48,552 nucleotides of DNA from a virus. The stretch lies in the UHGV virus genome UHGV-0142349, one strand, 5' to 3'. Position 1 is the first letter of the stretch, and each line of letters starts with the position of its first letter. The notes below the pieces were generated by a model, which worked only from the letters and a program-made list of their open reading frames with translations, was not told the origin of the DNA and did not search any database. Below, one piece after another: positions 2,425 through 40,045 of this stretch. The translations under genes and the position numbers were made by a program.

Positions 2425-2500
2425 GGCCCCTTAGCTCAGTGGTTAGAGCAGGCGACTCATAATCGCACGGTCATCGGTTCAAATCCGGTAGGGGCCACCA
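2425..2500 (+). tRNA. tRNA with CAU anticodon (elongator type; tRNA-Ile2/lysidine-like or Met)
   Basis: 76 nt cloverleaf: acceptor GGCCCCT/AGGGGCC, D-arm GCTC..GAGC, anticodon loop CTCATAA, T-loop TTCAAAT, 3' CCA; G1-C72 pair argues against initiator; 5' half recalled as close to enterobacterial ileX. Confidence 0.85.
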
Positions 2501-16761: not shown

Positions 16762-17243
16762 TTAATCTTTTGATAGATGCAATAAAAAATCGGTTGGAAC
16801 ATGAGGTTTTCCATGATTTATTAGTGCAGGGGCCTCCTTATGATGAAACAGATAGCGATATTAAATTGTTTGTTCCAACAATATTTAAAGGGTACTTGCC
16901 TCCTAAATCACAACCATCTCCAGATAAACCGCCAGAATTTCCTCATGTGATTATCAGACCCACGGAAGGAGGAATGCAGCCTGAAACGGATGAAGTTAAG
17001 GTTAAGTTTCTTCTAGGTGGTTTTTGTGAGGACCATACTGGATATGAATGGGTAATGGCTCTTCTTGAAAGGATGATGTTTCATTTTCAGGAGAAGCCTT
17101 TACTTGAAGAGAAATTTCTCTTTCAGGGTGATATCAGATGGCGAATGTTTGATGATCAACCATATCCATATTGGATAACGGAAGCAACTGGAACGTGGCT
17201 AGTATTAAAGCCTCAGAATATTCAGTCTCAGGAGTTTATCTAA
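16758..17243 (+). CDS. putative neck/tail completion protein
   Basis: 161 aa, overlapping start, structural operon context. Confidence 0.35.
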   Translation: MINLLIDAIKNRLEHEVFHDLLVQGPPYDETDSDIKLFVPTIFKGYLPPKSQPSPDKPPEFPHVIIRPTEGGMQPETDEVKVKFLLGGFCEDHTGYEWVMALLERMMFHFQEKPLLEEKFLFQGDIRWRMFDDQPYPYWITEATGTWLVLKPQNIQSQEFI

Positions 17244-17534
17244 ATGGCTAATAAGAAAAGTAGTAAAGAAGATATAGAAAAGAAGGAAGATGTTGCTCAA
17301 ACATTTGTATATATAGGACCAACAATCCCTCAACTCTCAATTTTGAAGCATAAACTATTTAAGAATGGCTTATCTCCAGAGTGTAAAAAATTAATATCAC
17401 ATATTCCTGGTGCAAAGTGTTTGTTTGTGGCAACCAGTGATTTTGCAGATGCAGAAAAAAGACTTTCTGATAAAACCAGTGTCGAGTATGTAATGTACTC
17501 TAGAGTTTCTTCTTCTATCATGGAGATTAAATAA
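17244..17534 (+). CDS. hypothetical structural-module protein
   Basis: 96 aa ORF upstream of sheath. Confidence 0.35.
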   Translation: MANKKSSKEDIEKKEDVAQTFVYIGPTIPQLSILKHKLFKNGLSPECKKLISHIPGAKCLFVATSDFADAEKRLSDKTSVEYVMYSRVSSSIMEIK

Positions 17535-18997
17535 TGGGATATCGCCACGGTATTTATATATCTGAGCTGGCTACATCTATAACTCCTCCAGTACAAGTTA
17601 GTGCTGGGTTGATTGTCGCATTTGGTACAGCTCCTGTTAATCAGTTAGAAGATCCAGCCTCAGCAGTAAATAAACCTATCATTGCTTATACATACGCAGA
17701 GGCCGTATCTAAAATAGGATATAGCACAAACTTCGAGAAATATACTTTAAGCGAAGTAATTAAAGTCGCATTTGGAATATATGGTGTTGCGCCAGTTGTA
17801 TTTATCAATGTGCTTGATCCAGCAAAGCATAAGAAAGACGTAACTGATGAGGTAGTAAAACTTTCTGGCGGGAAAGGTACGCTCTCTAACGATGGTGTCT
17901 TATATAAATCTGTTGTTGTGAAAAAAGCAGATGGTGATTCGCCAGGGTTAACGGTTGATACCGATTATGTGCTGGCGCTGGATGATAATGGCTATACGGT
18001 CATTACCGCTATTAGCGGAGGAAAAATTACCGAAAAAGACGCTACTCTTAAGGTTAGTTATACGCATCTTGATCCCGGTGCCGTAACTAAAAATGACATT
18101 ATCGGTGGTGTGGATTCCAACACTAAAGCCAATACAGGGCTTGAGTTACTGTCTGATGTGTATCCCCGCTTCAAGTTGGTTCCTGGACAAGTGATTGCGC
18201 CTGGATTTAGTTCTGATAGTGAAGTTGGTCAGCTAATGGCGGCTAAAGCCGCGTTGATTAGTGAATTGTTCAAAGCAGAAGCCATAACTGATGCACCGAC
18301 CGATAAATCTACTATCAGTGATTACTCGGCTGTTCCTGAATGGAAACAGAACAATAATCACATGGCCGCTAACCAGACAGTGTGCTGGCCGATGGTGAAA
18401 CTTGGTGACAATATTTACCATCACTCAACCCATTTAGCGGCCGCAACATGCTTGCTGGATAGTCAGTATGGTGATATTCCATCACGTTCTCCGTCAAATA
18501 TAAAACTACAGATGGACGGTGCTGTACGTAAAGATGGCAGTGAAGTATGGCTTAACATTAGCCAGGCAAACTACTTAAATGGTCAGGGGATTGTAACAAG
18601 CCTTAATTTTGATGGTTGGAAATCATGGGGAAACCGTAATGCTATTTATCCAACATCTACAGACCCCAAAGACGCATTTCGTGTTTGCCGACGTATGTTT
18701 AACTGGGTGGGTAATACGTTAATTCTTTCGCATTGGTCAAAAATAGACAATCCTGCAAACCGTCGATTAATTGAATCGATTGTTACAAGTGCGAATATTT
18801 GGCTTAACGGCCTCACAGGTAATCAGGATATTGCAGGTGGTGTTGTTACCTTTGATCAGTCTGAAAACACGATTACGTCATTGATGGACGGGATTGTTAA
18901 ATTCCATGTAAAAATGACACCATTCTCACCTGCCAGAGATATAGAGTTCGTCATGGAATATAATCCTGATTATCTGCTGAACTTGTTTTCTGAATAA
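17534..18997 (+). CDS. contractile tail sheath protein
   Basis: 487 aa followed by tube and frameshifted chaperone (P2 FI/Mu L-like layout). Confidence 0.8.
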   Translation: MGYRHGIYISELATSITPPVQVSAGLIVAFGTAPVNQLEDPASAVNKPIIAYTYAEAVSKIGYSTNFEKYTLSEVIKVAFGIYGVAPVVFINVLDPAKHKKDVTDEVVKLSGGKGTLSNDGVLYKSVVVKKADGDSPGLTVDTDYVLALDDNGYTVITAISGGKITEKDATLKVSYTHLDPGAVTKNDIIGGVDSNTKANTGLELLSDVYPRFKLVPGQVIAPGFSSDSEVGQLMAAKAALISELFKAEAITDAPTDKSTISDYSAVPEWKQNNNHMAANQTVCWPMVKLGDNIYHHSTHLAAATCLLDSQYGDIPSRSPSNIKLQMDGAVRKDGSEVWLNISQANYLNGQGIVTSLNFDGWKSWGNRNAIYPTSTDPKDAFRVCRRMFNWVGNTLILSHWSKIDNPANRRLIESIVTSANIWLNGLTGNQDIAGGVVTFDQSENTITSLMDGIVKFHVKMTPFSPARDIEFVMEYNPDYLLNLFSE

Positions 18998-32341: not shown

Positions 32342-33319
32342 ATGGAAACAAAAAGCCCGCAGATAAATCTGCGGGCTTCTTGCGACATCCACGGAAAACC
32401 AACAATTAACCATGGGCGCCTCGACAACTCCCATTATACGTTGGTTTTCCGTGGACGCAAGAGCGAACATATGGATAGACCAATGCCGTCTCTACGTTCA
32501 GCTTACGTTTGTAATTTGTCGCCGGAGTTCCAGCCTCCAAAGCACCATACGCACAAGCTGCCGCTGGTGTTATCTGATGCTTTACAGCGCATTAATGGTC
32601 GTGATCTTACGTGTGAGGTTGCGTTCTACGTTAATCAACCGTCAGAGCGGAAACGCCGGATAAACGAGCATCGTCGTCGGGCGATTAATGCTGTGATTGC
32701 TGCGATTTTGCACCATGTAAACATCATTTCTAAGCGGGTTCTGGCCAGTGCTGAGGCGTTGGCTGATTTTTGCGGTCTGTCTACCGTATCCGAAGCTGGG
32801 AACAAGTCTATAACGCGCTGTACAAGGGCGTTGTCGCAACTGAAAGCGTTAGGTTTTATTGATTATGAACGTCGCTGGGATCGGGTGAATAAACAGTATT
32901 GGCCAGCGAAAATAGAGATTCGTGATCAACTGCTGGAAACCGTTGGTATTACTGAACAAGCATGGAGACGTGCGGTTAGCCAGAAACTTAATTACTTCAA
33001 TGCGAAGAATAGCGAACGGCTTAAAAAAGCGATAACGGAGGCTGATTATAAGCGTATTGTTATTCAGGAGCAGATGGAGAATGTATGGCGTCAGAGGAAG
33101 ACGGCCAGAGAGATAAAGGCAAAACAGAAAGCAGCGGAGAGAGCTGCGCGTCTTGTTCGGGAAAAGGGAGAGGCCGAACTTCGTCATCAAATCACTAGAG
33201 AGGTTAGCCAGGAATTTGCTGATGGCATGTATCCTGGAGCTGACCTTGCATATTTACGATCCCTCGTTGAGCAGCGTTATAACAGGTTAAGAAAGACTTG
33301 GAAATCACTCCAACATTAA
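32342..33319 (+). CDS. repA: plasmid replication initiator RepA (IncFII RepA1-like)
   Basis: Segment SITRCTRALSQLKALGFIDYE resembles IncFII RepA1; basic C-terminus; real start may be internal ATG 32471 downstream of leader stem-loops. Confidence 0.65.
   Translation: METKSPQINLRASCDIHGKPTINHGRLDNSHYTLVFRGRKSEHMDRPMPSLRSAYVCNLSPEFQPPKHHTHKLPLVLSDALQRINGRDLTCEVAFYVNQPSERKRRINEHRRRAINAVIAAILHHVNIISKRVLASAEALADFCGLSTVSEAGNKSITRCTRALSQLKALGFIDYERRWDRVNKQYWPAKIEIRDQLLETVGITEQAWRRAVSQKLNYFNAKNSERLKKAITEADYKRIVIQEQMENVWRQRKTAREIKAKQKAAERAARLVREKGEAELRHQITREVSQEFADGMYPGADLAYLRSLVEQRYNRLRKTWKSLQH
32346..32455 (-). ncRNA. putative CopA-like antisense RNA in repA leader
   Basis: On minus strand: 15-bp-stem hairpin (32389..32454) then hairpin 32355..32376 followed by TTTTTGTTT. 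Confidence 0.35.
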
Positions 33320-33439
33320 CCCACCTGAATGATGAATCCGGTTTTACCGGAGGATTATCTACGTCGCAATAAAATATCTGTTCAAAAAACAATCTAAATT
33401 AATTTTCTCTAAACCTGAACACAGCAAAAATATCGCCTT

Positions 33440-33600
33440 TACAGGCATCGGCTAATAAAGTTATCCACAGTTTTGATATGTATATGCAAATGGTTTTTTA
33501 TAATAGATGCACTAAACAAATAAATGCAAAATCACTTTCTTTTATTAAGACTTTCTTTATTTAACTTACGCAGGCTTTGCCTGTGAATATGTTCGCCCTT
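33440..33600. promoter_or_regulatory. putative replication origin (DnaA box TTATCCACA at 33461..33469 plus AT-rich tract)
   Basis: Perfect DnaA box about 140 bp downstream of repA stop, then about 120 bp AT-rich DNA. Confidence 0.5.
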
Positions 33601-34537: not shown

Positions 34538-34781
34538 GGCTTTCGCGTCGAAAATGAGGCGAAACTGAAAACGAGATTTCATTAACAAATAAGCAACATA
34601 AAAAACGGTGGAAAACGCCCAGGAAAACATGATCTTTTGAGCGGATTTTTTAGATCCGACAATGAACGGTGATCCGGTGGTGCCGATAACGTCCATTATG
34701 TTAAATAGCCCCGTTTTTCTTGAAATTATAACTCACAGGTTATATAGTTAGTGATATAAACTACAGGTTATAGGATTGAGC

Positions 34782-36602: not shown

Positions 36603-36875
36603 ATGACGGGTTACGAATTGAAATTATGGCGTCGTGGGATGAACTGGACGCAGGAGCGAGCCGCCGAAGAGTTTGGGATATCGTTGGCTACATATAAGCG
36701 ATATGAGAAGGGGGTGCCGCCGAGGGTCATGGAGATGGCCATTCGCGTTCTGTCGTTTGACGATATGGTTAAGGATCTTTCACACCTTGATAAAGATGCG
36801 ATTCTGTTAAGGCTGCAAACCCTTGTATGGGAAAAGGTTAAAGTGTCGGCAGAATTGGAACAAGGGATCAAATGA
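36603..36875 (+). CDS. HTH (XRE-like) DNA-binding protein
   Basis: 90 aa; WTQERAAEEFGISLATYKRYEKG resembles an HTH. Confidence 0.45.
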   Translation: MTGYELKLWRRGMNWTQERAAEEFGISLATYKRYEKGVPPRVMEMAIRVLSFDDMVKDLSHLDKDAILLRLQTLVWEKVKVSAELEQGIK

Positions 36876-36923
36876 TCCTTTACGGATCGTTTTATGGTGG
36901 TGTAATGTAAGCGCCAGAAAGAC

Positions 36924-36948
36924 AAAAACCGCCTTGCCGGGCGGTTTT
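36924..36948. terminator. bidirectional rho-independent terminator
   Basis: aaaaccgcc-ttgccg-ggcggtttt (A-run before, T-run after). Confidence 0.55.
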
Positions 36949-37484
36949 CAGTCTGAAATTTAAATCTTGCTTGGTAGGCTGGATTTAAAAAGACACCTCT
37001 TGATTGGGGCGGCTTTCTTGCGTCTAAAGATAATCAAATCTTTTTGCGCCTGCAACCCCTTTTTTACTGGTGCTCATTTCAGACTCACGCTCGCGTCGTT
37101 GTCTTTGCCACTTCGTTGGGTTCGGTGTTTTTGGGCGAAGTGGCGCGCGGGTATGCGTACAAGGGGAAAGTGTGCTGACGCAAGCTAGGAACAGCGATCT
37201 AAACTAAGTCGAGTCTGAGAAAGGCAGGAGTGCGACAACTCGCCTGTGCTCTATGAGCAGAAGAAGGTATATCAGACGACCAATGGCATGATTGTGGGCC
37301 ACAGGGCGCACACGGCGGCGAAGCATTGGAAACGATGTGGAGCTATCTGGTGGCATGAGTTCCGGTACTCGATCTCGAGCTTTTTTGATGCTTTTGAGAA
37401 GGGGCCGGAACTCCGGTAAAGGGCACCCTGTATGGGGGGAGGGGGGGTTGTGTCTGAAGGGTGGTTATCGGTTATGGTGGAATT

Positions 37485-37673
37485 ATGATGCGTAGAAAAG
37501 CGAGTTTGCTGCAAGCTATTGGGTCCATTATTTCTTTGTTTCCGGCAGTTGATCATTTTCGTCATATGGCGACACGTTCCAGTATGGAGTTGGCGCGTGA
37601 CGCTGACGCTATTCGAAAGGATTTTCAGAAAGTCTCTGGTGTTGATAAGAGAGAAAAGAGTAAGGGGCCGTAG
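37485..37673 (+). CDS. possible small protein (62 aa), low confidence
   Basis: ATG 37485 with GGTGGA upstream; ends before hairpin 37661..37676. Confidence 0.25.
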   Translation: MMRRKASLLQAIGSIISLFPAVDHFRHMATRSSMELARDADAIRKDFQKVSGVDKREKSKGP

Positions 37674-37683
37674 CCCCTTGTAG

Positions 37684-38952
37684 TTATGGTCTGCTTTTCT
37701 GTGCCAGCTTATCAGCACATGTTTTTATCAGATCCTGTAGTGTCCTGGCTGGCAGGTTTGCATCCAGAACGCTGAGTATGCTGTTGTGATCAGCCTGGTC
37801 GACTACTTTGCCTGTCGGTGGTAGTAGCTTGAGCTGAGGATTCAGGTCCTCGTCAAAGCTGATAAGTGCTCTGGCGTTCCTGAGCAGATCAAGAAGTAAG
37901 GCTGATATCACATTTTCCTGAGTCATTGCTGGCAGACTTAGCGCCGCTTTAGTTTTCTCCGTCGCCTTGTCAAACTCTTTGATTAGTGTCTTGCGGTAGT
38001 TCGGTTCCGTTAATAGCCGATTATGCTCTGTTGCCGCGCGGATAATCGTTTTTTCTTGGTACAGTCGTTTAGCCAGATCACGCTCGTACTGTGTTTTTAA
38101 CACGCTGCTGATAGCGTTAAAGGCTTCAATGTAGGCCAGCTTGATATCTTTTACGCCTGGACCGTCGATGCTCTCCATGAGCAAGGTAAATCCGTCTTTT
38201 GTCATGCGATAGATTGTTATTTCGCGGTCGCTTCCTTCCAACGGTCGTTGCTCTTTAAAGAAATGACGCGCCGCAGCTGTGCGAGGAATGCGTAACGCAT
38301 CGATGGCCATAACGATGGAATTGTTTGTGGTGCTGAATGCCTGGGCAACATCGGCCGAGGTTGTGAGTGGCTCGTTATTGCACACCTTAATGTAAAACAT
38401 CGGTTTGGCGTTGAGCGTATCGACAACCTCACGAGCATTGTTTGGCGAGACGGTTACGGTCGCGGCCGTTTGCGCGTTCTGGTTGAAGTAGCAGTCTTCC
38501 AGCCGTTCGAACACATCCCACGCTTGGTTAGTTTCAAGCATTTTGGCGTGACGTGCAGCCCCGCGTTCTGTCCAGAGAATGAGGGAGCGAACGTTACGGG
38601 CGATTTTCACAGAGTGACTTTTAGTTACCTTGTGGTTAACAGAGTAGTTTAAAACTACTCTGTGCTCGTCGCTCTCTCTTTTAGAGGGGGCGTCATTAAC
38701 TGAATCTCTTAAAGAGTTTTTGTTCTTCACATCATTATCTTGAGTCACTTTGTGCTTTAACTCTCGAAGTTCGTTACCTTCAATTTTGAAGTAGTGCTTA
38801 CCTTCAATGAAGCGTTCCTTATTCTCATGATGATTTTGTCGAATGCGTACAGGAGATACGCCGTAAAGCTGTGCCAGTAACTCGGTAGTAATGACAGGGA
38901 TTTGGTTATGCAGGATAGGCTGTAGGGTGTTAACGGTCGGAAGCGTTTTCAT
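37684..38952 (-). CDS. antirepressor (KilA-N/ORF6N-like N-domain, Ant-like)
   Basis: 422 aa; N-terminal ITTELLAQLYGVSPVRIRQNHHENKERFIEGKHYFKIEGNELRELK resembles ORF6N/KilA-N. Confidence 0.65.
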   Translation of the reverse strand: MKTLPTVNTLQPILHNQIPVITTELLAQLYGVSPVRIRQNHHENKERFIEGKHYFKIEGNELRELKHKVTQDNDVKNKNSLRDSVNDAPSKRESDEHRVVLNYSVNHKVTKSHSVKIARNVRSLILWTERGAARHAKMLETNQAWDVFERLEDCYFNQNAQTAATVTVSPNNAREVVDTLNAKPMFYIKVCNNEPLTTSADVAQAFSTTNNSIVMAIDALRIPRTAAARHFFKEQRPLEGSDREITIYRMTKDGFTLLMESIDGPGVKDIKLAYIEAFNAISSVLKTQYERDLAKRLYQEKTIIRAATEHNRLLTEPNYRKTLIKEFDKATEKTKAALSLPAMTQENVISALLLDLLRNARALISFDEDLNPQLKLLPPTGKVVDQADHNSILSVLDANLPARTLQDLIKTCADKLAQKSRP

Positions 38953-39176: not shown

Positions 39177-39435
39177 TCGAGGCTAATCAAATGGTGGTGA
39201 GCCGTACAGGGTTAGCCTTACCGGACACAATGACGAACCGGCGCGGATTTCTCCGCCCCTGTACGACCCACCATAATTTGGGCGTAACAGTGCTCTACGC
39301 ATAAAAAAACCGCTAACGCGGTATGCGCCATCGTGTTATTCAGGAGGCTAATCCCGACCGTAGATTTTGCTACGGCTCGGAAAGTGTCCACCAATGGCGC
39401 ATTCATGTCAATACGGCGGGATTTTAACAGAGACA

Positions 39436-39448
39436 ACCACATAGCGTG
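39436..39448. promoter_or_regulatory. operator-like site CCACATAGCGTGG upstream of ant operon
   Basis: Matches CCACAT-N3-GTGG motif seen in repressor/cro intergenic region. Confidence 0.45.
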
Positions 39449-39473
39449 GGTTTATTGGTAGGCAGAAACAAAA

Positions 39474-39498
39474 AAACCGCCCTATTGAGGACGGTTCT
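39474..39498 (-). terminator. minus-strand rho-independent terminator
   Basis: Hairpin accgccct/aggacggt with A7 before on + strand (T-run after on minus). Confidence 0.45.
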
Positions 39499-39893
39499 TT
39501 CGTGCTGATCGGATTCGCGGTCCTTTCAGCATTACGTTGTTGTATAAACAACCACGCAAGCACAAGCAGCAAATTGATTTTACTCAAAAGGTAATAATAG
39601 TCCACTATTATACATCAAAAAATTGTGGTTCTTGTTGTGTCAGCAAACTCACAGATTGTGGGTAGGTTACTGATTTTGTGAAAATAAACTGTTTTTTTCG
39701 TTTAATTTCTTTCCTATTACTAATCTTAAAATAATCGTAAAATACCTGTGGACCTTCCCGCCGATTCGCACCCGGGCACCGACTTTAGGGGAGGATTTCC
39801 TGTTGCCGTACATGCAAGCACAAGCAGCCGTGCTTGCTCTCGCGTTGTTTTCGTCGGTGGGGATGCCGTGAAACGGCCTGTAAGGGCCATACA

Positions 39894-40016
39894 ATGAAAA
39901 AATACTGTATGTGTATTTTTATCGTTGTTACTGGAGCTTTGTTTACGCCACATGGGGAGGGTTGGAAGATTACTGATAACGCTCTGAATGTGACGATAAA
40001 CATTAGCAGCAAGTAG
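39894..40016 (+). CDS. small hydrophobic protein (40 aa), candidate type I toxin-like peptide
   Basis: MKKYCMCIFIVVTGALFTPHGEGWKITDNALNVTINISSK; followed by terminator at 40022..40045. Confidence 0.3.
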   Translation: MKKYCMCIFIVVTGALFTPHGEGWKITDNALNVTINISSK

Positions 40017-40021
40017 CGATT

Positions 40022-40045
40022 AGGCCCCTTCGGGGGCCTTTTTTA
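40022..40045 (+). terminator. rho-independent terminator
   Basis: ggcccc-ttcg-ggggcc then TTTTTT. Confidence 0.65.

Follow-up and report, generated by a model that had tools for sequence, protein, structure and literature searches.

The virus genome UHGV-0142349 (48,552 nt; the window, meaning here the whole stretch that was analysed) is a complete or nearly complete phage-plasmid of the myovirus type. Between the stop codon of a gene for a helix-turn-helix (HTH) protein and that of the convergent ant gene, it carries a block of about 0.55 kb, which is the subject of this report. Read from left to right, the block comprises a predicted promoter overlaid by GATC-rich palindromes, a hairpin whose T-run lies on the minus strand, a series of further hairpins and, close to its right-hand end, a tract of six G, one A and seven G (G6AG7); a short antisense RNA is predicted against its left part. 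The coordinates of these features are collected in Table 1. The block is an unannotated core element of a phage-plasmid family, present as a discrete unit with sharp borders, and is considered below as a possible RNA-primed origin of replication.

The borders were drawn from an alignment with relatives: homology is continuous from the HTH stop (36875) to about 37460, some 12 nt past the G tract, and then breaks off abruptly. Between the Escherichia coli and the Salmonella types the block is 87.5% identical and represents the best-conserved DNA of its neighbourhood, as compared to 70-76% for the flanking genes and 68-76% for repA, the toxin-antitoxin genes, ant and parA, with one segment reaching up to 82.5%. 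A non-coding block conserved above its coding neighbours must serve some function. A previous examination based on the letters of the window (the sequence-only reading) had delimited the interval as 36950-37480. The block itself begins further upstream, with the promoter at 36879-36906, and ends at about 37460; that the G tract marks this sharp right-hand end had been overlooked.

The block occurs on 62 plasmids of PLSDB, all of them non-mobilizable phage-plasmids of 32-94 kb, a number close to that of the plasmids with the terminase gene of the family (60). Three Yersinia myophages (vB_YpM_39, 41 and 44) match the region at 98-99% identity. Equal closeness is found in 59 non-mobilizable plasmids of Escherichia and Klebsiella aerogenes, almost all of them 46-52 kb in size; three Salmonella plasmids hold copies at ~87.5% identity. 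Among complete E. coli genomes, 72 of 5,426 (~1.3%) possess the module. In E. coli ATCC 25922 it resides on plasmid NZ_CP009073.1, at about 17,060-17,870. A metagenome scan with an invariant 20-mer returned 15 contigs, all from the same phage-plasmid family and some of them useful variants (L042, 251-755; L047, 2421-2953; L038, 488-1042). The first has a clean deletion of 50 nt that removes the hairpin at 37107-37144; the second, a contig of low coverage, has an internal deletion of 22 nt; the third combines E. coli-type and Salmonella-type stretches, a mosaic that points to recombination inside the block.

The interval 36876-37460 is non-coding, and no gene is annotated under 36950-37480 in any of the 62 plasmid records. 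The open reading frames (ORFs) of 73, 44, 57, 67 and 148 amino acids are interrupted by frameshifts or stops in Salmonella or L023 relatives. The only ORF open in all lineages is 50 amino acids long, on the minus strand (37204-37356), and lacks a ribosome-binding site. Its substitutions are spread 7/4/7 over the codon positions and its changed codons comprise 10 non-synonymous versus 3 synonymous cases, so that it bears no coding signature. Pfam and PHROGs provide no match for any ORF inside the stretch. The sequence-only reading had seen no convincing coding potential here, a view borne out by the broken ORFs and by the lack of annotation, codon-position bias and family matches. It had also held that an intact, conserved ORF in relatives would speak for a decayed gene: what relatives hold intact is the 50-residue frame just described.

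Comparative folding points instead to a structured RNA read from the plus strand. RNAalifold yields -186 kcal/mol for the plus strand versus -141 kcal/mol for the minus strand. In a 13-sequence alignment (A4), eight base pairs are changed on both sides and stay paired, as compared to a mean of 3.1 in shuffled alignments, none of 500 of which reached eight. The helices numbered 10, 19 and 20 are symmetric and able to form on either strand. Their single-side changes are nearly always transitions, giving G.U or U.G pairs on the plus strand and C.A mismatches on the minus strand: about 13-15 wobble-preserving changes fit the former and 1-2 the latter, and it is for this reason that the RNA is placed on the plus strand.

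The individual hairpins illustrate how pairing has been maintained. The arms of helix 10 exist in four versions, all of which pair: GCCACTTCG/CGAAGTGGC, GCTGTCTCG/CGAGATAGC, GCTTCTCCG/CGGACGGGC and GCTGTCTCG/CGAGGTAGC. Helix 19 has three arm versions, GCATTG/CGATGT being replaced by GTGCTG/CGGCGC and, in the mosaic L038, by GCGTAG/CGGCGC; all its cells are paired in the 13 sequences of A4, and L038, which is outside A4, has one A.G mismatch. The one-side changes of helix 20 convert A-U, U.G or G.U pairs into other standard pairs, all valid on the plus strand. A structured non-coding RNA had been among the candidates of the sequence-only reading, and the eight double changes (0 of 500 shuffles), the varied arms of helix 10 and the plus-strand wobble bias give it substance. 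The outer stem gagttccgg/ccggaactc described there is real and its end was correctly placed, but it lies at 37357-37365/37405-37413, the start given as 37348 being off by 9 nt; it forms the base of the 21-pair helix 20. The hairpin proposed inside this stem is not conserved; a pairing of UCUCGAG with UUUUGAGA is kept instead via changes from G.U to A-U. Covariation supports these hairpins one by one, and a global fold is left unclaimed. At gathering scores, a scan of the whole window with Rfam 15 retrieves only ryfA, C4, a tRNA and isrK, none of which lies in the region. With permissive settings (E up to 10), the region itself yields a sub-threshold match to RNAI and evident chance matches, and a scan of relatives adds nothing.

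The site predicted to drive this RNA is the best promoter-like sequence on the plus strand of 36800-37500, and both of its hexamers are invariant in all lineages. From its -10 hexamer to the CCGCC stem of the first hairpin there are 22 nt; in four plasmids of the ColE1 type and one from Vibrio the interval is 20-21 nt. The overlapping palindromes that cover the -35 region form the only place in the 48.5-kb window with three GATC within 25 nt and do not recur elsewhere in the window; they may constitute an operator or a methylation control site. The ColE1-type and Vibrio plasmids likewise have one to four GATC at their RNA II promoters.

The hairpin that follows had been reported by the sequence-only reading as a terminator at 36924..36948. 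The hairpin is real, but it spans 36923-36950 and its T-run belongs to the minus strand; the plus strand offering only TTTT, it is mainly a minus-strand terminator. Over 24-35 nt it matches ~1,570 mostly small plasmids at ~88-96% identity. In all four ColE1-type plasmids checked (L003, L025, L026, L027), the Rfam family RNAI (62-75 bits) ends exactly at a hairpin of this type, on the same strand. By analogy, the left "terminator" would belong to an antisense RNA of the ColE1 RNA I type, overlooked until now. This candidate is predicted to fold into three hairpins over ~100-107 nt (-30.9 kcal/mol, z = -4.2) and has a weak promoter. Six lineages share its three-stem-loop architecture and differ mostly at the tips of stem-loops 1 and 2; no part of the block varies more than the apical portion of stem-loop 2, where 15 of 30 columns differ. 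No lineage departs from the hexamers of the candidate antisense promoter, around which 37010-37055 hardly varies (1-2 variable columns per 30 nt).

At the opposite end, the G6AG7 tract is the sole one of its kind in the window, 0.08 being expected by chance. The sequence-only reading had rightly singled it out, at 37435-37449 rather than at its actual place, 37434-37447. Almost every copy retains it as such; G6AG8 occurs in a few, and a T interrupts the tract in one copy from a metagenome. The tract and its tail (GGGGGGAGGGGGGGTTGTG) are almost identical to CSB II (conserved sequence block II) of human mitochondrial DNA (GGGGGAGGGGGGGTTTG), and both lie on the non-template strand (PMC4176368). 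CSB II forms an RNA:DNA hybrid G-quadruplex and an R-loop, stops transcription and yields the primer of mitochondrial DNA replication, an effect also seen with T7 RNA polymerase (PMC4176368, PMC3488243). The two systems are unrelated, that of CSB II being organellar and served by a single-subunit RNA polymerase, and the likeness would be convergent. In IMG/VR, TGGGGGGAGGGGGGGT is non-specific: it matches more than 120 viral contigs (L050-L166), often within a few dozen bases of a contig end and none with the module, and these matches are probably poly-G sequencing artefacts.

The tract also takes part in alternative pairings. In folds of the nascent chain a run of four C (C4, 37056-37059) pairs with four G (37006-37009) inside the antisense target, while the full-length fold re-pairs C4U6 with the G tract. 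This change of partner is reminiscent of the alpha/beta/gamma conformational switch of ColE1, an assignment that is speculation on a modelled fold.

To the right of the block, the interval up to the ant stop (37461-37683) is a cargo slot that varies by lineage. In the window it holds a 62-residue ORF with a weak match to PHROG 26284. The sequence-only reading had listed this ORF as possible, and it is indeed annotated as a hypothetical protein in relatives; it is missing from several lineages, however, and is variable cargo outside the element. E. coli copies of the L007 type have a membrane-anchored 211-residue ORF with an N-terminal hydrophobic segment in the slot (L007, 3909-4544), and Salmonella salamae has other DNA. 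Nothing occupies the slot in L004 (3510-3526), L041 and L042; there the G tract runs straight into the bidirectional ant terminator.

Table 1. Features of the conserved block and, below them, of its surroundings in the window (positions are those of the 48,552-nt stretch).
Feature	Position	Strand	Description or basis
GATC-rich overlapping palindromes GGATCAAATGATCC and GATCCTTTACGGATC	36865..36888		over the -35 region; three Dam sites
Predicted sigma-70 promoter for the long RNA	36879..36906	+	TTTACG, 16-nt spacer, TGgTGTAAT (extended -10); predicted transcription start site (TSS) ~36913
Structured non-coding RNA, ~548 nt	36913..37460	+	fold energy, covariation, homology break at 37460
Candidate antisense RNA, ~100 nt (RNA I-like)	36920..37021	minus	complementary to the 5' end of the + RNA; three stem-loops
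Hairpin AAAACCGCC-cggcaa-GGCGGTTTT, then U-run	36923..36950	minus	candidate terminator of the antisense RNA; also first stem-loop of the + RNA
Weak candidate antisense promoter	37027..37055	minus	TTGCAG, 17-nt spacer, TATCTT
Helix 10 hairpin	37107..37144	+	strong covariation; 5 pairs changed on both sides
Invariant hairpin with GGGG (37163-37166)	37154..37182	+	237 nt after the 5' hairpin; within a 37-nt block invariant in all lineages
Helix 19, small hairpin	37323..37338	+	covariation; 2 pairs changed on both sides, 3 on one side
Helix 20, large hairpin	37357..37413	+	37357-37380 with 37390-37413; 21 pairs, 17 invariant; conserved in all lineages
G6AG7 tract	37434..37447	+	proposed R-loop/hybrid G-quadruplex nucleation site and priming point
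Variable cargo slot, outside the element	37461..37661	+	holds the 62-residue ORF 37485-37673 in the window
Bidirectional terminator after the ant stop	37662..37692	both	terminator scan
IncFII-family repA	32342-33319		
Perfect DnaA box TTATCCACA	33461-33469		140 nt downstream of repA
AT-rich short repeats	33524-33564		near the DnaA box
Candidate dif/psi-like Xer site GTGCCGATAACGTCCATTATGTTAAAT	34680-34706	+	2 mismatches to the pattern; 0.08 matches expected by chance
C4 antisense RNA	39190-39278	minus	Rfam scan of the whole window
isrK	39303-39376	minus	Rfam scan of the whole window
ryfA RNA, full-length	39748-40044	+	143 bits, Rfam scan
tRNA	2425-2497		Rfam scan of the whole window

It is proposed that the block is a replication origin module of the ColE1 style, RNA-primed and antisense-controlled, a reading to which we assign a probability of roughly 45%, somewhat short of even odds. 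The host RNA polymerase would start at about 36913, amid the three Dam sites, from the invariant plus-strand promoter, and would produce a folded pre-primer RNA of ~548 nt comparable to RNA II. At the G6AG7 tract, the G-rich RNA would remain on the C-rich template and might, as at CSB II, join the displaced G-rich strand in a hybrid RNA:DNA G-quadruplex. The persistent R-loop would then be trimmed, presumably by RNase H, and the trimmed primer extended by a host polymerase rightwards into the variable region. The minus-strand antisense RNA of ~100 nt, with its three stem-loops and its end at the hairpin 36950-36923, would pair with the 5' end of the pre-primer and block priming, and its specificity (incompatibility) would be determined by the variable loops of stem-loops 1 and 2. 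The variability of stem-loop 2 is read in this way because loop variation sets specificity in antisense-controlled replicons (PMC3035462). We infer the transcripts and their ends, the R-loop, the priming and the antisense control from sequence and layout.

The gene content of the phage-plasmid is relevant to this proposal. The RefSeq annotation of one family member comprises P2-like tail genes, lambda-like terminase genes, an invertible tail-fibre segment, ParA and HigBA; repA, of the IncFII family, is the single replication gene annotated. No helicase, primase, polymerase or lytic initiator is recognisable. As RepA is the only recognisable replication gene, a second, lytic origin is unaccounted for, and the block could be this otherwise lacking lytic origin of the family. 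The repA gene, the DnaA box and the AT-rich repeats (32342-33600) look like an oriR of the R1 type, which the perfect DnaA box 140 nt downstream of repA places ~3.5 kb to the left of the block. MOB-suite gives no replicon type to the family plasmids, and the GC skew, positive over the whole window, is uninformative for locating an origin. Our literature search turned up no publication describing the three Yersinia phages, nor one reporting a ColE1-like origin for enterobacterial phage-plasmids.

Several observations weigh against an origin. The phage-plasmid already has a RepA replicon. A strict promoter scanner calls no promoter in the region, and the antisense promoter, whose hexamers agree with the consensus at 3/6 and 4/6 positions, scores under the threshold of either scanner used. 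The fold obtained from the window sequence alone is weakly supported, 48% of its variant pairs being kept versus ~40% in shifted controls, and the duplex between the G tract and C4U6, which a ColE1-like switch needs, is no stronger than in shuffles (p = 0.11). With the body of ColE1 RNA II, no co-linear similarity beyond the first ~50 nt, which take in the hairpin and ~20 nt after it, was detected by blastn (7-nt words) or nhmmer. The Rfam model of RNAI (RF00106) aligns to 36922-36995 of the minus strand at 18.1 bits, where the gathering score would require 47, and skips one stem-loop. Conversely, true RNA I genes are recovered at 21-24 bits by a covariance model trained on the candidate antisense RNAs, while the terminator hairpin alone gives 21.9; since nearly all of the score stems from it, the shared hairpin could be convergent. 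The PAGEV model (RF03037) has no match in 36700-37800 at E up to 10, as compared to 120 bits in the Vibrio plasmid L028. The module is absent from the small plasmids of PLSDB and from outside the phage backbone, all 62 hits being phage-plasmids of 32-94 kb, and no circular mini-contigs were found among the short contigs; nature thus provides no evidence of autonomous replication. Finally, a terminator ~10 nt after the G tract in some relatives fits a discrete non-coding RNA equally well.

This last point leads to the strongest rival, a serious one though less likely than not: a structured regulatory RNA of ~550-600 nt with a role other than priming, transcribed from the same promoter, stopped at the G tract or at the next terminator and controlled in its level by the short antisense RNA. 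It might act in lysis-lysogeny or superinfection control near C4/icd/ant, or as an anti-defence or decoy RNA. The structural, conservation and border evidence fits such an RNA just as well, and the Rho-independent terminator right after the G tract in L004, L041 and L042 would define it as a discrete molecule. The immunity region of the phage-plasmid, which the block adjoins, encodes the C4, isrK and ryfA RNAs besides icd/ant and is RNA-rich throughout 39190-40044; the presence of a RepA/oriR replicon and the failure to detect homology to known RNA-primed origins beyond one hairpin also fit a regulatory role. On the other hand, no Rfam family matches up to E 10 save the weak RNAI and chance matches, and no target can be named. 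A regulatory RNA also leaves unexplained the ColE1-like spacing of promoter and hairpin, the length of ~550 nt, the positions of the G runs and the CSB II-like tract on the non-template strand.

An improbable alternative is that the block is a long structured 3' untranslated region (UTR) or transcriptional insulator, in which read-through from the HTH gene (36603-36875) past a weak hairpin buffers the convergent ant operon and the RNA has no function of its own. Such read-through is indeed likely given the four T that follow the hairpin on the plus strand, and the block does lie between convergent transcription units with terminators on both sides. Yet an insulator requires neither conservation above that of the surrounding genes nor compensatory changes in internal hairpins, an invariant 37-nt core and an invariant G tract, and a conserved promoter-like site separates the HTH stop from the hairpin. 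With the HTH gene as an anchor in the viral and genome collections, loci of Serratia and Providencia were found to carry distant HTH homologues and no module downstream. The 90-residue HTH_3 protein itself, encoded directly upstream of the module, has homologues at 34-44% identity on thousands of conjugative plasmids, amounting to 3,780 PLSDB records.

Less probable still is a site acting as DNA, be it a multimer-resolution, recombination, packaging or single-strand initiation element whose hairpins form in the DNA. Hairpins could form in single-stranded DNA too, the right border is a recombination hot spot for cargo, and ATGCGTACAA at 37153-37162 resembles the XerC arm of cer. No XerD arm accompanies it, however: an Xer (dif/cer/psi) pattern with a 6- or 8-bp spacer and the XerD arm TTATGKTAAAY, allowing up to three mismatches, is unmatched in the region, and its only match in the window is the better, dif-like site 2.3 kb away at 34680-34706. 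The recombination or resolution site put forward by the sequence-only reading is not supported on these grounds. The terminase genes, and hence the likely cos site, are ~26 kb away, and a 550-nt unit of many hairpins with wobble pairs on one strand, framed by a promoter and a terminator, fits an RNA better. The dif-like site, which a loose GATC cluster (34631-34671) adjoins, is probably the multimer-resolution site of the plasmid prophage.

A decayed protein-coding gene, also among the earlier suggestions, has a close to negligible chance: the window copy does contain several ORFs of 44-148 amino acids and the 50-residue minus-strand ORF is intact in all lineages, but the former are broken in relatives, the latter lacks codon bias and a ribosome-binding site, none matches Pfam or PHROGs, and the block combines compensatory base changes with a conservation above that of real genes nearby.

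Phage-plasmids are vehicles by which resistance and virulence genes spread, and the lytic replication of few of them is understood. If the block is an RNA-primed origin, its 0.55 kb would explain the lytic replication of the family with host enzymes only, and the very short list of RNA-primed replicons (ColE1, the marine RNA-based or MRB plasmids, mycobacteriophage prophages) would gain a new lineage. It would also provide a compact new origin and incompatibility module for vectors and, for the G-quadruplex/R-loop priming switch known until now from work on the mitochondrial CSB II, a model in bacteria that is amenable to genetics. Should it be no origin, an unannotated, conserved and structured RNA of ~550 nt still resides in ~1.3% of complete E. 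coli genomes.

Among known systems, ColE1 is the closest in layout. Its RNA II promoter is located 550 bp from the origin and its RNA I is ~110 nt long (PMC5043065); the block runs for 547 nt from its predicted TSS (36913) to its end (37460), and opposite its 5' end a three-stem-loop antisense RNA of ~100 nt is predicted. The terminator hairpin differs little from that of RNA I and shares its strand and its position relative to the promoter; GATC sites accompany the promoter in both, and no initiator gene is attached to the block. Counted from the shared hairpin, G runs occur at +237 (GGGG) and +508 (G6AG7, 508-521 nt), versus +250/251 and +480/497 in the ColE1-type plasmids L003, L026 and L027. 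The ColE1-type plasmids have G6 runs at both positions, whereas the block has an invariant GGGG followed by G6AG7, and the origin-proximal tract of ColE1 reads G6CGGAG. In ColE1, according to what Masukata and Tomizawa reportedly described in Cell in 1990, the persistent hybrid is nucleated by G-rich RNA around -265 together with C-rich template around -20. In contrast to ColE1, there is no Rop gene, and the block belongs to a 48-kb tailed-phage genome with a RepA replicon, not to a small plasmid.

Phage origins offer partial parallels. In phage T4, a persistent promoter-derived R-loop serves as the primer at ori(uvsY) and ori(34). The lytic origin of phage P1 (kilA-repL/oriL) lies directly downstream of c4-icd-ant and needs transcription. 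The block is also located directly downstream of C4/icd/ant; unlike the P1 origin, it is convergent with ant and not co-transcribed, and it is accompanied by no RepL homologue. No similarity to P1 was found in the phage collection. In plasmid prophages of mycobacteriophages, a transcribed non-coding region is necessary and sufficient for replication, and the origins are RNA-based (PMC7157519). Their hosts are Actinobacteria, and they lack RepA, which the present phage-plasmid possesses; likened here by description, they may work in the same manner.

The MRB plasmids of Vibrionaceae (pB1067) demonstrate that such systems need not be related in sequence: they form an independent family of RNA I/RNA II replicons that lack both a Rep protein and sequence kinship with ColE1, and in them differences in the RNA I loops set compatibility (PMC3035462). 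Their RNA I is 68 nt long with two stem-loops, as compared to the three stem-loops of the candidate in the block, and the plasmids are known only from Vibrionaceae; beyond the hairpin and the promoter geometry, no sequence homology between MRB replicons and the block was found. In the Vibrio vulnificus plasmid p93U204 (L028, 690-1400), the same hairpin of the RNA I type is situated between a promoter with three GATC (TTGAGA/TAATCT) and the PAGEV RNA, with G-rich tracts at +290 and +562, an arrangement suggesting that the pre-primer of MRB-like replicons includes PAGEV. The block is not filed in the ColE1 family; it is proposed to work like ColE1 all the same, in the way the MRB plasmids do. 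The boldest form of this proposal, which we hold to be doubtful, is that it represents a third, sequence-unrelated family of RNA I/RNA II-type origins residing beside RepA, a lytic or run-away origin under antisense and Dam control whose CSB II-like switch would have arisen by convergence with that of human mitochondria.

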